64,000 nucleotides of DNA. It comes from an uncultured Rhodospirillaceae bacterium (GTDB lineage Bacteria; Pseudomonadota; Alphaproteobacteria; Rhodospirillales; UBA2165). The notes below the pieces were generated by a model. It was not told the origin of the DNA. It searched no databases and was given only the letters and a program-made list of their open reading frames with translations. The stretch lies in assembly GCA_964611435.1 (NCBI GenBank), contig CAZSXT010000015.1:2116-66115 (forward strand). Direction: 5' to 3'. Below, in pieces: positions 1-44,281 of the stretch. The translations under genes were made by a program, and so were the position numbers. How positions within the stretch are numbered: the stretch's first letter is position 1; every line of letters starts with the position of its first letter.

Positions 1-210
1 ACCTGGCGGCACGGCCGTGTTCCTGAACAGATCCGAGGCCTCGTCCTCGCCCAGGTTTATGGGCGGGGTGCACTCAAATGATTGGGGCGGAAAAACTCTC
101 AGGAAGAGGTTATTGGCGGCCGGATTGAAGAACTCGTCCGCCGTTTGGACTTCCCAGCAGAAATCCTTGAGGGAGACGATCCGGAAGGTGGCATAGTTGG
201 TAGACGCCAA
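1..210 (-). CDS. Partial ORF running off the left edge, unknown product
   Basis: Minus-strand frame open from TTG at 210 to position 1 (LASTNYATFRIVSLKDFCWEVQTADEFFNP...), with an in-frame stop just upstream. Not in the ORF track because it is truncated. Confidence 0.4.
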   Translation of the reverse strand, partial: MASTNYATFRIVSLKDFCWEVQTADEFFNPAANNLFLRVFPPQSFECTPPINLGEDEASDLFRNTAVPPG

Positions 211-264
211 AGTTCAAGTCCCGTCATTGTCGCGGCCACTATGGGCAAGTCCTTGAATTATAGC

Positions 265-338
265 AAGAAAAGGGGGTGCTGTGATCCTTATCGGGGGAAA
301 TCGGTTTGAAACACAAGCACCCCTAGTTCACCAGGAAA
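265..338 (-). ncRNA. Unit 3 of tandem suhB/MmgR-like structured RNA array (degenerate anti-SD motif)
   Basis: Minus strand TTTCCT-GGTGAACTA-GGGGTGCT-[35 nt]-AGCACCCC-CTTTTCTT. Same scaffold as units 1 and 2 but lacking CCCT. Confidence 0.5.
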
Positions 339-352
339 TTGGTTCTCCGAGG

Positions 353-447
353 AAAAAAATGGGGTGCGCGCGGTTTGGTAGTTGGCTGGCAGGCCCGCTC
401 CGCAACGCACCCCTAGTTCACCAGGGAGGAACCCGTTCTTTTCCTCC
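353..447 (-). ncRNA. Unit 2 of tandem suhB/MmgR-like structured RNA array
   Basis: Minus strand TTCCTCCCT-GGTGAACTA-GGGGTGCG-[37 nt]-CGCACCCC-ATTTTTTT. An upstream GGAGGAA can pair with TTCCTCC. Confidence 0.6.
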
Positions 448-462
448 GTCGTTTTTGCCGGC

Positions 463-545
463 AAAAAAATGGGGTACGCCGTACACAGCAATGAAAGGCT
501 GGTCTGTGCGTTGCCGTACCCCAAGTTCACCAGGGAGGAAAAGAA
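463..545 (-). ncRNA. Unit 1 of tandem suhB/MmgR-like structured RNA array; probably also the nrdJ terminator
   Basis: Minus strand TTTCCTCCCT-GGTGAACTT-GGGGTACG-[36 nt]-CGTACCCC-ATTTTTTT. The UUUCCUCCCU decamer followed by a hairpin and U-tract is the hallmark of alphaproteobacterial suhB/MmgR RNAs. Confidence 0.65.
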
Positions 546-561
546 TCTCTTTAAATTTCAT

Positions 562-3500
562 TTACGAACATCCGCTCGTCGCGCCGCAGGTCACGCACTT
601 CATGCAGGTGCCGTTTCTGACCAGCGTGAAGTTGCCGCACTCGCCGCAGGCGTCGCCTTCGTATCCTTTCATTTTCGCTTCTCGAACCGCATCCATGCGG
701 TTGTCTGTCGCCGCGGCCACATGCGCCTCGACCGAGACCGATTCCGTGATGCCGACCTCGACACTGGTCGGCGTTGCGACCATGGCTTCCGCCGACATGC
801 TTTCGCCCATGGCTTCTGACTTGCCGCCGTTAACGACCATCAGATTGCTCCGCATGTAGCCTTGGCTGGCGTAGCGTTCGACCCGATCCATTGCTTCGCT
901 GATGGCCTCGCTGACGGCTTCGTCGTCCTCATTGCCGCGGCCGACCGTATCCGGGGCCAGATCTTCCGGCTGGACATGGGCCAAGTCGTTGCGGCCCAGG
1001 TACGACACTGCCAACTCGCGGAAGATGTAATCCAGTATGGAGGTCGCCATCTTGATGGAATCGTTGCCTTCCACCATGCCGGACGGTTCGAACCGGGTGA
1101 AGGTGAAGGCCTCGACGAATTCTTCCAGCGGCACCCCATATTGCAGGGCGATTGAAATGGCGATGGCGAAGTTGTTCATCAATGAACGGAACGCAGCGCC
1201 TTCCTTATGCATATCGATGAAGATTTCGCCGGCTCGCCCGTCTTCGTATTCGCCGGTCCGCAGATAGACCTTGTGTCCACCAACCGTTGCCTTCTGGGTA
1301 TAACCCTTCCGGCGGTCGGGGAGGCGTAGGCGCTTGGCCATGTAGCGTTCCACCACCCGCTCGGCGATGAATTCGGCGCGAACGGCTGTCGGCGCGGCCG
1401 CGATTTCCTCGATCAGATCCTCATCCTCGTCATCCTCGATATCCTCCAGGAGTTGCGAATTGAGGGGCTGCGACAGTTTGGAACCGTCCCGATAGAGGGC
1501 GTTGGCTTTCAATCCTAGCTTCCAAGACAGCATGTAGGCGCTCATGCAATCTTCGACACTGGCGCTGTTGGGCATGTTGATCGTCTTGGAAATGGAGCCC
1601 GAGATAAACGGCTGCGAGGCCGCCAGCATCCTGATGTGGGAGTCTACCGACAGGAACCGTTTGCCATCCCGGCCACAGGGATTGGCGCAGTCAAATACCG
1701 GTAGATGCTCATCCCGCAGGTGCGGCGCGCCTTCCAGTGTCATGGCGCCGCAAACATAATTGTTGGCGGCGGCCACATCGGCCCTGGAGAACCCGAGCGA
1801 AGCCAGCATGTCGAACGAAATATCGTCCAGCTGATCATCAGTGAAGCCCAGGGTTTCCGTGCAGAAATCCGCGCCGAGGGTCCATTTGTTGAAGACAAAT
1901 TTGATGTCGAAAGCATCGCCCAAAGCGTTTTCCACAGTGGCGATGGCGTCGTCGTCAAAGCCCTTTTCCTTGAGCGTTTCGTGATTGATGGCGGGCGCGC
2001 CGGCCAAGGTGCCCAGACCAACCGCATAGTTGATCATGTCTTCGATCTGACCATCCTCGTAGCCCAGTTTTTTCAGGGCCATGGGCACGGTCTGGTTGAT
2101 GATCTTGAAGTAGCCGCCGCCGGCCAGTTTCTTGAACTTGACCAGGGCAAAGTCCGGCTCGATCCCGGTGGTGTCGCAATCCATGACCAGCCCGATCGTG
2201 CCGGTCGGCGCAATGACGGAAACTTGCGCGTTGCGGTAGCCATGCTTTTCACCTAGCGCGAGCGCCTCGTCCCAGGAGTTCCGGCCGGCGTCGATGATCG
2301 CATCACCGGCGCCGGAATCGATATTTGTCAGCGGCACCGGCAGAACCGAAAGCTGCTCGTAATCGGCTTCCTCGCCGTGGGCGGCGCGCCGATGGTTGCG
2401 GATCACCTTGAGCATGACGTCGGCGTTGTCATCATAACCGGGGAACGTGCCCAGAAGCTCGGCCATTTCCGCCGAGGTGCGGTAGCAAATGCCGGTCATC
2501 AGCGCGGTGATGGCGGCGCAAATAGTGCGGCCGTCTTCGCTGTCATAGGGGATGCCCATGGCCATCAGAAGCCCGCCGATATTGGCGTACCCTAGGCCCA
2601 GCGTACGATAGCGGTAGGACAGTTTGGCGATTTCCGCCGACGGGAACTGCGCCATCAGTACTGCGATTTCCAGGTTGATGGTCCACAGCCGCACCGCGTA
2701 GGAAAAGGCCTCGATGTCGAAAGAACCGTCCTCCAGTTGGAAGGCTTTCAGGTTCAACGACGCAAGATTGCAGGCCGTGTTGTCGAGGAACATGTATTCC
2801 GAGCACGGGTTCGACCCGTAAATTCGGTCTGTGTTCAGGCAGGTGTGCCAATCGTTGATGGTGGTGTCGAACTGAAGCCCTGGGTCAGCACAGGACCACG
2901 CGGCGTCGCCGATCTGACGCCAAAGCTCCCGGGCGTTGACCGACTTGGCAACTTCGCCGTCCGTGCGGCGGATCAGGTTCCATTCCTCGTCATTTTCCAC
3001 TGCGCGCAGGAAATCATCGGTCACCCGCACTGTATTGTTGGAATTTTGGCCGGACACCGTGAGATAGGCATCGGAATCCCAGTCCGTGTTGTAGGTTGGG
3101 AATTCGATCTCGGTGAAGCCTTGGCGGGCATAGTCAATGCAGCGCTGGATATAGTTTTCCGGCAGCATGACCTTGCGGGCGCGGATAATCGCCTTTTTCA
3201 GCCGCTTATTCTTCTTCGGATCAAACCGGTCTTCGGCATCGGCGTCGTGACAGGCTTCCATGACCTCGTTTAGATGTTTTTCGGCCAATTTGGAACCCGC
3301 GACCAAGGCCGCCACCTTCTGTTCTTCGGTTACTTTCCAGTTGATAAAGGTCTCGATGTCCGGGTGGTCGGCATCCAGGATGACCATTTTGGCCGCCCGG
3401 CGGGTGGTGCCGCCGGATTTGATGGCGCCGGCGGCGCGATCACCGATTTTGAGGAAGCTCATTACGCCGGAGGACTTGCCGCCGCCGGATAGAGGTTCAT

Positions 3501-4224
3501 TTTCACCCCGCAGTTGGGAGAAATTAGTGCCCGTACCGGAGCCGTACTTGAAAAGGCGGGCCTCTCGGACCCACAGGTCCATGATGCCGCCCTCGTTGAC
3601 CAAATCGTCCGAGATGCTCTGAATAAAGCAGGCATGGGGTTGCGGGTGTTCGTATGCCGATTTTGATTTCACCAGCTTGCCTGTCTCGAAATCCACATAG
3701 TGATGCCCTTGGGAGGGGCCATCGATGCCATAGGCCCAGTGCAGGCCGGTGTTGAACCACTGCGGCGAATTCGGCGCGCACATCTGCAGGCAGAGCATGA
3801 GGCTCATTTCATCGTAATAGGCGCGAGCGTCGGATTCGGCGTCAAAATAGCCGCCCTTCCAACCCCAATAGGTCCAGCAGCCGGCCAAACGATTAAAGAC
3901 TTCCTTCGCGGACGTTTCACCCCGGAAGCGCTCTTCTTCGGGTAATTTCTTGAGGGCGGCCTCGTCCGGCACGCTGCGCCAGAGCCAGGACGGCACATCG
4001 TTCTCTTCCACCTTTTTCAGGCGGGCAGGGACGCCCGCTTTGCGAAAATATTTCTGCGCGAGAACGTCACAAGCGACCTGAGACCAGGACGATGGGACTT
4101 CAATGGCATCGTGTTTAAAGACAAGAGAGCCGTCCGGATTCCGGATTTCGCTTGAGGCTTCCCGAAATTCTGTATCCCCGTAGGCGCCCGACTCCTCAGT
4201 GGTAAAGTAACGCTGTACTCGCAT
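562..4224 (-). CDS. nrdJ: Vitamin B12-dependent (class II) ribonucleotide reductase
   Basis: 1220 aa. Motifs [26 protein letters not shown] (radical Cys), IAPTGTIG, C-terminal TSCPD region and CGECG...[11 protein letters not shown] tail. Confidence 0.97.
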
Positions 4225-4321
4225 GTAGTCCCCCGAATTTTCACTCCCGGCAAACCAACTGGTCGGAATTTCCCGTTTCCCCCAGTCTCCCAGGCCGGCA
4301 TATTGGTGTTCATCGCCCCCG

Positions 4322-4438
4322 TCACAACATTTTGTCAGTTGCGACTTCGGACGCGCTATATGTAGCGCTGATCGAAATTTGAGTCAAAGAGAAACAAGAT
4401 ATTGGGGCAGATCGAAATAATATTGCCAAATATTGTAG
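4322..4438. promoter_or_regulatory. Four NrdR boxes upstream of nrdJ (starting 4322, 4353, 4392, 4423)
   Basis: 16-mers tcaCaAcATtTtGtca, gcgCtAtATgTaGcgc, aaaCaAgATaTtGggg and ttgCcAaATaTtGtag all keep the C-A-AT-T-G core of acaCwAtATaTwGtg. They form two pairs, each spaced 31 bp. Confidence 0.8.
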
Positions 4439-4482
4439 GCATTTGAACGATTTACCCGACGCCACCTGATGGGAAGTCTTCC

Positions 4483-44203: not shown

Positions 44204-44281
44204 GACCCCTTCGTCTAGTCAGGCCTAGGACTCCAGATTTTCATTCTGGCAACACGGGTTCGAATCCCGTAGGGGTCACCA
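44204..44281 (+). tRNA. tRNA-Glu (anticodon TTC)
   Basis: Acceptor stem GACCCCT/AGGGGTC plus ACCA; anticodon arm CCAGA-TTTTCAT-TCTGG; T arm ACGGG-TTCGAAT-CCCGT. Confidence 0.95.

Follow-up and report, generated by a model that had tools for sequence, protein, structure and literature searches.

An array of three tandem RNA-like units lies directly behind nrdJ, the gene of a ribonucleotide reductase, on the minus strand of a 64,000-nucleotide (nt) stretch of DNA from an uncultured Rhodospirillaceae bacterium (assembly GCA_964611435.1, contig CAZSXT010000015.1), and this whole stretch is referred to hereafter as the window. With moderate confidence, we propose that the units are sibling copies of an nrdJ-linked, alphaR8-like small RNA (sRNA), which are read through from nrdJ, processed and repress other messages in trans. 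Each unit is predicted to be composed of an anti-Shine-Dalgarno (anti-SD) seed, (U)UUCCUCCCU, a constant linker, a GC-clamped terminator hairpin and a U-tail, which together would make a typical Hfq-binding 3' module; the gene hfq is found in this genome.

Tandem sibling anti-SD sRNAs and sRNAs derived from 3' untranslated regions (3' UTRs) are both already-known kinds of RNA. The apparent novelty is that the coupling of this kind of RNA to nrdJ is conserved across an order and that Rfam 15 lacks it, and the elongated, family-specific hairpin with a conserved loop motif also appears to be new. Our literature search found no sRNA described behind nrdJ in Alphaproteobacteria, though the main alphaR8 phylogeny may include such copies.

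Anatomy and conservation of the three units

The first unit begins about 17 nt past the stop codon of nrdJ (Table 1). Unit 1 contains the linker GGUGAACUU and a hairpin (522-471) whose distal part, or insert, is 36 nt long (514-479) and has an ACCAGCC loop, while unit 2 contains the linker GGUGAACUA and a hairpin (413-361) with an insert of 37 nt (405-369), in which the conserved apical motif GCCUGCCAGCC is found at 394-384. In both units the linker follows the form GGUGAACU(U/A), and the 8-bp GC-clamped stem is followed by an A and seven U. Unit 3 retains the linker and reads AAUUUCCUGG at 340-331, without the CCUCCC seed (UUUCCUGG); its loop contains UUUCCCCCGA, and its tail, CUUUUCUU at 272-265, is weaker. 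This form of the unit is known from this genus only. With its seed gone, unit 3 may be either decaying or specialised.

The 17-mer CCTGGTGAACTWGGGGT occurs three times in the window, where 0.15 copies are expected from shuffles and none of 100 shuffles reaches three. Allowing up to one mismatch, the core is found at five sites in the 4.06-Mb genome, three of which are these units, and the remaining two, both on contig C1, have neither a hairpin nor a U-tract. When the whole genome was searched with covariance model R1, unit 2 scored 85.8 bits, unit 1 81.4 bits and unit 3 48.5 bits. The unit is confined to the nrdJ locus in this genome, and since the next-best match reached only 15.3 bits (E 1.3), it is not a genome-wide repetitive extragenic palindromic (REP) element or generic terminator.

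Pairing and conservation were evaluated with 56 distinct units that came from loci found by BLASTN and from 31 exact-motif loci found in a scan of 185,579 species genomes. RNAalifold on a MAFFT alignment returned the small seed hairpin only, with the 3' arms misaligned, so the structure was set by hand and tested by pair counts. In this set, the outer helix is paired at 95.1% and shows compensatory changes in five of its eight pairs; none of 500 shuffles reaches the observed covariation score, and every slid register scores far lower. Of 40 relatives searched by BLASTN, the array is present in 22 of the 24 that belong to the same family and in none of the 16 from other families, and the stretch best conserved between genera is unit 2 including its insert, with 80-90% identity (query positions 116-210). 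When three species of the genus are compared, insert sequences show 0-4 differing bases, which does not exceed the divergence of the flanks, and the changes include one compensatory swap from G-C to U-A across the stem. The loop motif CUGCCAGCC is present in 34 of the 56 distinct units and its CCAGCC part in 41; the latter is common to units 1 and 2, is conserved in relatives and has at least five of its six bases unpaired in the folds of 21 of the 41 units. The inserts are the distal part of one long terminator hairpin. Comparison with relatives indicates that in this taxonomic family the terminator hairpin is lengthened and bears the conserved apical motif CUGCCAGCC, which may serve as a second pairing site or as a protein-contact site. 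A pseudoknot between linker CUGGUG and loop UGCCAG was also considered and found no support, as units with a variant loop (CUGCUAC) keep an identical linker.

The seed and linker, 22 nt in all, hardly change between genera with an NrdJ identity of only ~64-77% at the protein level, and CCUCCC is present in 51 of the 56 distinct units. At the level of sequence comparison, this unpaired-looking segment is shown to be under strong purifying selection. The purine-rich box GACGGAGGAAAAGAACGGG in the spacer between units 1 and 2 is complementary to the seed of unit 1 (17 nt, 88%) and, in unit 2, to both the seed (12 nt, 83%) and the U-tail, and purine-rich boxes recur upstream of the units in relatives. 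We speculate that such boxes could cover the seeds while these are still part of the precursor, or could be sites of the (A-R-N) type for the distal face of Hfq.

An earlier note on this DNA, made from the letters alone, had described three minus-strand units directly after nrdJ with covarying stems and had taken them for a multi-unit sRNA cassette in the 3' region of that gene. The units, their covariation and the cassette all stand, the unit is not scattered over the genome, and nrdJ is confirmed by its matches to the Pfam families Ribonuc_red_lgC (1.1e-124), Ribonuc_red_2_N (4e-44) and TSCPD (3.3e-11). The motif that the note assigned to every unit is borne by units 1 and 2 but not by unit 3, which lacks CCUCCC. 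The inserts are indeed nearly constant in length (36, 37 and 35 nt), but units 1 and 2 have the CCAGCC loop in common, and the inserts are not mere filler of unrelated sequence.

Table 1. Positions of the array units, the parent gene and neighbouring features in the window.
Feature	Position	Strand	Details	Basis
Unit 1	463..545	minus	seed UUCUUUUCCUCCCU 545-532; arms 522-515 / 478-471; U7 469-463	
Unit 2, conserved orthologue	353..431	minus	seed UUCCUCCCU 431-423; arms 413-406 / 368-361; U7 359-353	
Unit 3, diverged copy	265..338	minus	arms 323-316 / 280-273; insert 315-281 (35 nt); hairpin 323-273	
Purine-rich spacer box	432..450	minus	GACGGAGGAAAAGAACGGG, between units 1 and 2	inverted repeats and folds
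nrdJ, parent gene of the array	562..4224	minus	class II (B12-dependent) ribonucleotide reductase, 1220 amino acids (aa)	open reading frame (ORF) and Pfam
GT61-family glycosyltransferase gene	1..210	minus	401 aa; 5' part in the window, rest beyond the window edge	ORF; Pfam Glyco_transf_61 8.6e-25
Sigma-70-like promoter (predicted)	257..285	minus	ATCACA-17-TATAAT with TG extension (TGcTATAAT)	consensus scan, 10/12 positions; consensus match only

Linkage to nrdJ and distribution across the order

The C-terminus of NrdJ is encoded directly upstream of the RNA and on the same strand at all 20 relatives' loci and at 50 of the 51 loci overall. The sole locus without nrdJ (L047), labelled as a Bathyarchaeia metagenome-assembled genome, is coding-like sequence without a hairpin or U-tail and is a chance match. 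The exact-motif loci are labelled Rhodospirillales or Rhodospirillaceae and are mostly metagenome-assembled. Among 32 distinct arrays, one, two and three units are found in 12, 10 and 10, respectively; the number of units varies between relatives, a point that the earlier note had proposed to check between strains, but the inserts are not exchanged.

Model R1 matches 63 of 151 genomes sampled across the order. Outside the family, the RNA is shorter, ~64 nt, and consists of (G/A)AUCCUCCCUGGGAAACUUGGGG, an ordinary terminator and a U-tail. The order-level matches lie behind nrdJ at 19 of 21 and 26 of 40 loci examined, with the seed ~21-27 nt past the nrdJ stop, and an nrdJ-linked unit is present in at least 51 of the 151 order genomes (at least 44 outside the family and seven checked inside it). 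Tandem duplicates are also present in other families of the order. A further covariance model, R2, was built from 51 order-level nrdJ-linked units, and its structure is paired at 84.5%, with compensatory changes in eight of 11 pairs; unit 3 is not among its matches at E<=0.001. In a sample of the class with one genome per family, R2 matches 47 of 151 genomes, and the 31 loci inspected include nrdJ-linked copies in five genomes (5/150 other alphaproteobacterial families), while the rest belong to other classes of RNA that are described below.

Within the arrays, the median distance from the U-tract of one unit to the TCCCTGG of the next seed is 24 nt, which is too short for a separate sigma-70 promoter, and the later units are therefore predicted to come by read-through. 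Transcript assemblies give a weak hint in the same direction. In contigs of three RNA libraries from three studies, sequence runs from nrdJ through units 1 and 2 and stops in unit 3, at 310, 323 and 331, with no loose end; one of the RNA runs has a separate contig of lower depth beyond the stop in unit 3, and a contig of a fourth run covers 280-515.

Proposed mode of action and competing explanations

We propose that a transcript from the nrdJ promoter would read through the successive, partly leaky terminators of the array, as its anatomy and the RNA-library contigs suggest. By analogy with the CcsR1-4 RNAs, an endonuclease would then cut by the U-rich 5' edge of each seed and free RNAs of ~80 nt, and by analogy with SisA, SuhB and SorY, i.e., with what is documented for alphaR8 RNAs (PMC12559287) and for SorY (PMC4615379), the seed would pair, together with Hfq, with ribosome-binding sites (RBSs) of the GGGAGG type and repress translation in trans. 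The dose of the regulator would track transcription of nrdJ, i.e., replication or the demand for deoxynucleoside triphosphates (dNTPs). An extended form of this proposal, which we hold only tentatively and think unlikely as a whole, is that the nrdJ-linked RNAs form a replication- or dNTP-coupled regulon across Rhodospirillales, in which terminator leakiness sets the number of siblings, siblings in this family act through two sites (CCUCCC and a new apical CUGCCAGCC loop) and unit 3 feeds back negatively on nrdJ. In such a regulon, transcription of nrdJ, apparently under the control of NrdR, would at the same time drive the expression of one to three sibling sRNAs of the anti-SD type.

Several results weigh against trans-acting siblings. 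RNA-library contigs cannot show ends, strand, level or discrete species of ~80 nt, and they may contain DNA. In some single-copy relatives (L005, L008, L020, L032 and L048), nrdJ is followed by a U-run of its own or by sequence resembling a terminator before the unit begins; this may be what is left of a lost first copy, or it may give room for a promoter of the unit's own. The units miss the Rfam thresholds of both suhB and SorY. When 51 units were folded by minimum free energy, an average of only 54% of CCUCCC was left unpaired, and no unit had it entirely free. Pairing of its CCC to the opening Gs of the terminator can form a small hairpin, CCCUGG-UGAA-CUAGGG (with a GAAA loop in the order-level form), which competes with the base of the terminator; all columns of this hairpin are invariant and thus give no covariation signal either way. 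Target searches, too, brought no target to light. The best duplex between the seed and 19,940 candidate start regions of its own genome (crude ORF call; duplexfold), at -32.4 kcal/mol, is no better than those of five shuffled seeds (-31.0 to -32.1 kcal/mol), and a duplex scan with the loop motif did no better than one with shuffled loops. Among 39 genomes of the family, the perfect matches to the seed complement ACCAGGGAGGAA that lie outside sRNA genes sit at RBSs. The genes so matched code for a protein of 141 aa, for a dienelactone-hydrolase-like protein and, in two genomes that belong to one genus, for an SDR, but the perfect 12-nt seed complements at RBSs in these 39 genomes include no target common to different genera.

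Two observations accompany these searches. Seed-complement matches at loci L259 and L261 (G320:C14 and G321:C25; genus g4) are further copies of the sRNA gene on the opposite strand. The start of ssb (AUGGCUGGCAG, G000:C8:13111-13121) holds a 10-nt complement of the loop of unit 2 (383-392) that ranks 158 of 10,456 and does not reach significance genome-wide; the ssb start of relatives mostly reads AUGGCAGGC... and fits the loop in a shifted register, and we regard ssb as a possible target of this loop, i.e., an unproven lead.

The array might instead be a cis-acting 3' UTR of nrdJ, made of redundant terminators and 3'-end stabilisers, whose C/U stretch folds on the nrdJ RBS or on a purine box and tunes how nrdJ is translated or how fast it decays, with no trans targets. 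We consider this rather unlikely, even though its linkage to nrdJ is absolute. In the family, the nrdJ RBS is a conserved G-run, UCGGGGGA, with which UCCUCC can pair via one G-U, and boxes complementary to the seed lie inside the array itself. Moreover, the loop of unit 3, UCCCCCGA (281-300), contains a perfect 8-nt complement of the nrdJ RBS (4228-4240), a candidate contact that could be autoregulatory in the one genus that has unit 3. An effect of Hfq on nrdJ is known as well: in an hfq mutant of S. meliloti, NrdJ protein falls to 0.09 while its mRNA only halves, according to PMC3484140. A terminator alone would nevertheless leave the invariant 22-nt segment unexplained, and the seed is CCUCCC, whereas CCCCC would suit the nrdJ RBS best. 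Set against the nrdJ leaders of 30 genomes, the seed forms duplexes of modest and uneven energy (-10.5 to -21.0 kcal/mol), with no conserved long complement. The seed and 3' module are also those of free-standing, trans-acting alphaR8 genes, and the multiplication to one to three copies is more in keeping with the dosage of an RNA that diffuses than with an element acting in cis. A decoy, in which the repeated loops (CUGCCAGCC) and C/U stretches titrate an RNA-binding protein or another sRNA, would make use of the tandem repetition and of a loop motif that recurs in most of the units and is mostly unpaired, and alphaR8 RNAs are known partners of the sponge CrfA (PMC12559287). That this array is such a sponge is nonetheless quite improbable in our judgment: 12 of the 32 distinct arrays have a single copy, no partner has been identified, and the loop motif occurs in a single family. 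Elsewhere in the order, the seed is retained with a plain hairpin and without the loop motif, and the ancestral function therefore lies in the seed module.

The earlier note had gone further and had suggested that the inserts could be spacer-like specificity modules in a guide-like RNA array, in which they would be exchangeable on a constant scaffold. The near-constant length of the inserts and the dissimilarity of their sequences within this locus invite this reading, which has been rendered very improbable by comparison with relatives: the insert of unit 2 is conserved between genera, inserts are nearly identical within the genus, and what was taken for a spacer is a paired distal hairpin with compensatory changes and a loop motif in common, whereas the order-level homologues have short hairpins without any insert. 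Nor was the foreign origin expected of spacers borne out, as neither the inserts nor the array match any of 50,697 phage or 72,556 plasmid records, and BLAST searches with the three inserts against their own genome returned short matches only, the best of 16 nt at E 0.018 and in coding sequence. The latter match, between the loop of unit 3 and G000:C12:53269-53284 (L137 1770-1785), is inside an ORF for a methyltransferase-like protein of 273 aa, far from its start, and is probably due to chance. The tempting guide-RNA reading is removed by these results. Least probable of all, and hardly to be entertained, is a generic REP-like repeat, a common terminator or a gene for a small repeat protein. 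An 80-aa ORF (288-530, minus strand) does span the units and repeats FLPGELGV, but the units measure 70-83 nt and recur with periods of 88-138 nt, neither of which keeps to multiples of three, and indels of 1-2 nt occur between units, and therefore no reading frame is kept; a generic repeat, for its part, would not be restricted to three copies in the genome, all at the nrdJ locus.

Neighbouring features and relation to known small RNAs

The gene for a GT61-family glycosyltransferase follows the array in three of 20 relatives' loci and is kept within the genus only; the RNA therefore belongs with nrdJ, and the GT61 gene is outside the RNA system. The predicted promoter at the end of the array overlaps the 3' arm of the unit 3 hairpin ~50 nt upstream of the GT61 start, so that the last terminator of the array and the next, predicted promoter have sequence in common. 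This promoter-like site probably drives the GT61 gene and marks where the array ends on its 3' side. A tRNA- or tmRNA-like fragment had been suspected at ~170-250, a stretch that is the 5' end of the GT61 gene and has no match by ARAGORN or Rfam. At the other end of nrdJ, its leader and promoter region (4225-4470, minus strand) contains the AT-rich, palindrome-like boxes CTACATATAGCG, CCCCAATATCTTG, CTACAATATTTGG and CACCAATATGCC, which we take to resemble NrdR boxes. The sole match in the 64-kb window at the gathering level of Rfam is a tRNA gene at 44204-44278 (+) with 58.9 bits.

The earlier note had likened the units to the suhB/MmgR group and had pointed to suhB and cuckoo/CcsR as Rfam families to be searched. 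At gathering thresholds no Rfam family matches the array, and at permissive settings, positions 1-700 and the flank outside the start of the window yielded either sub-threshold matches to SorY, suhB and PK-repBA or nothing. Unit 1 scores 15.2 bits against suhB RF00519 (E 2.2; gathering score 41) and 16.4 bits against SorY RF02651 (E 1; gathering score 111). Units 2 and 3 match no Rfam family at E<=10, no cuckoo-type family is matched at E<=10 in the 1-700 scan, and none of the 18 nrdJ-linked loci of relatives reaches E<=0.1 for any Rfam family. The affinity to suhB/MmgR holds in the anti-SD motif, the linker and the terminator, but membership in the Rfam family does not. Searches with models of nrdJ-linked units alone also bring up canonical alphaR8 genes, at 28-38 bits; against suhB, two free-standing copies of the order reach 51.7 and 63.7 bits. 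The matches that are not linked to nrdJ fall into two classes, one of canonical alphaR8/suhB RNAs, with a weak hairpin, GUUUCCUCCCU, (A/G)AACUUGGGCCG and a terminator, and one of SorY-like RNAs with CCUCCCUGUUGAACUUGCCGG. In the genome under study there is no suhB match above threshold, the best reaching 30 and 24.9 bits. These two candidates, at G000:C1:96880-96954 (+) and G000:C41:8492-8569 (+), have GCCUCCCUGU, (A)ACUCGC, a terminator and a U-tail and resemble the SorY-like class that is found at non-nrdJ loci across the order.

The alphaR8 family is the most widespread sRNA family of Alphaproteobacteria. To our knowledge, only a few of its members have been studied (MmgR, SuhB and SisA-D), all of which are free-standing and tied to carbon metabolism. 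According to PMC12559287, alphaR8 RNAs are defined by a terminator and an internal single-stranded UUUCCUCCCU downstream of a weak hairpin, usually lie beside a gene for an N-formylglutamate amidohydrolase, with paralogues that may lie elsewhere, pair via the 10-mer, bind Hfq, and occur as siblings, some of them adjacent; the same paper names them as partners of the sponge CrfA. The units are like these RNAs in several respects. The exact 10-mer UUUCCUCCCU is found in unit 1 (541-532) and nine of its 10 positions in unit 2 (GUUCCUCCCU), with none in unit 3; a short linker ending in ACUU or ACUA leads to a GC-rich, Rho-independent terminator and a U-tail; and sibling copies that are sometimes adjacent are likewise reported, in PMC12559287, for a family that includes MmgR of S. 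meliloti, SuhB of Sphingopyxis and SisA-D of Caulobacter. They differ in having no weak 5' hairpin, as the Rfam alignment replaces 13 model positions by one and the sequence upstream of the units is the nrdJ stop region or a short spacer that is not conserved. They also differ in sitting 3' of nrdJ rather than beside a formylglutamate amidohydrolase gene, in the extended linker CUGG(U/G)(G/A)AACUU that the nrdJ-linked units conserve, and in the 52-nt hairpin with a conserved loop motif of its own that is found in this family. We have therefore filed the units as a putative sister lineage that would work like alphaR8 RNAs, not as members of RF00519.

The interest of this lineage is that it is hard-wired to the 3' end of an essential gene, that of the B12-dependent ribonucleotide reductase. 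If trans action is true, cells would broadcast the transcription of nrdJ, and hence their demand for DNA precursors, to other mRNAs and link replication status to the control of translation. The locus also offers a natural series for the duplication and divergence of sibling sRNAs, with one to three copies, short and elongated hairpins and the gain of a loop motif.

Of the other known RNAs, SorY of Rhodobacter sphaeroides has a 3' module, CCUCCCUG-N-ACUUGGG, which aligns with unit 1 together with the terminator and the U-tail; in contrast to SorY, the 5' stem-loop is reduced to four pairs and 26 model positions are missing. SorY itself acts in trans and represses the mRNA of a transporter (PMC4615379).

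For the proposed making of the array, the best precedent is CcsR1-4 (the cuckoo RNAs, alpha-r14, of Rhodobacter and rhizobia), which are likewise tandem homologous sRNAs with C/U-rich motifs of the anti-SD type. The cuckoo motif sits in hairpin loops. In the present array, by comparison, a single CCUCCC precedes the hairpin, and nrdJ is the parent. According to PMC8034643, CcsR1-4 are four homologous sRNAs with the cuckoo motif CCUCCUCCC, which are co-transcribed with an upstream DUF1127 gene, affected by Hfq and cut from the 3' UTR by RNase E, one of the cuts being at GUUUCC.

More generally, sRNAs derived from 3' UTRs are well known, with CpxQ and SdhX as examples from enterobacteria and SorX and UdsC from R. 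sphaeroides. Such RNAs have their promoter and terminator in common with a coding gene, and their level reports its transcription, as we propose for the units behind nrdJ. Unlike them, the module described here has multiplied into tandem copies and stays with a single housekeeping gene across an entire order.

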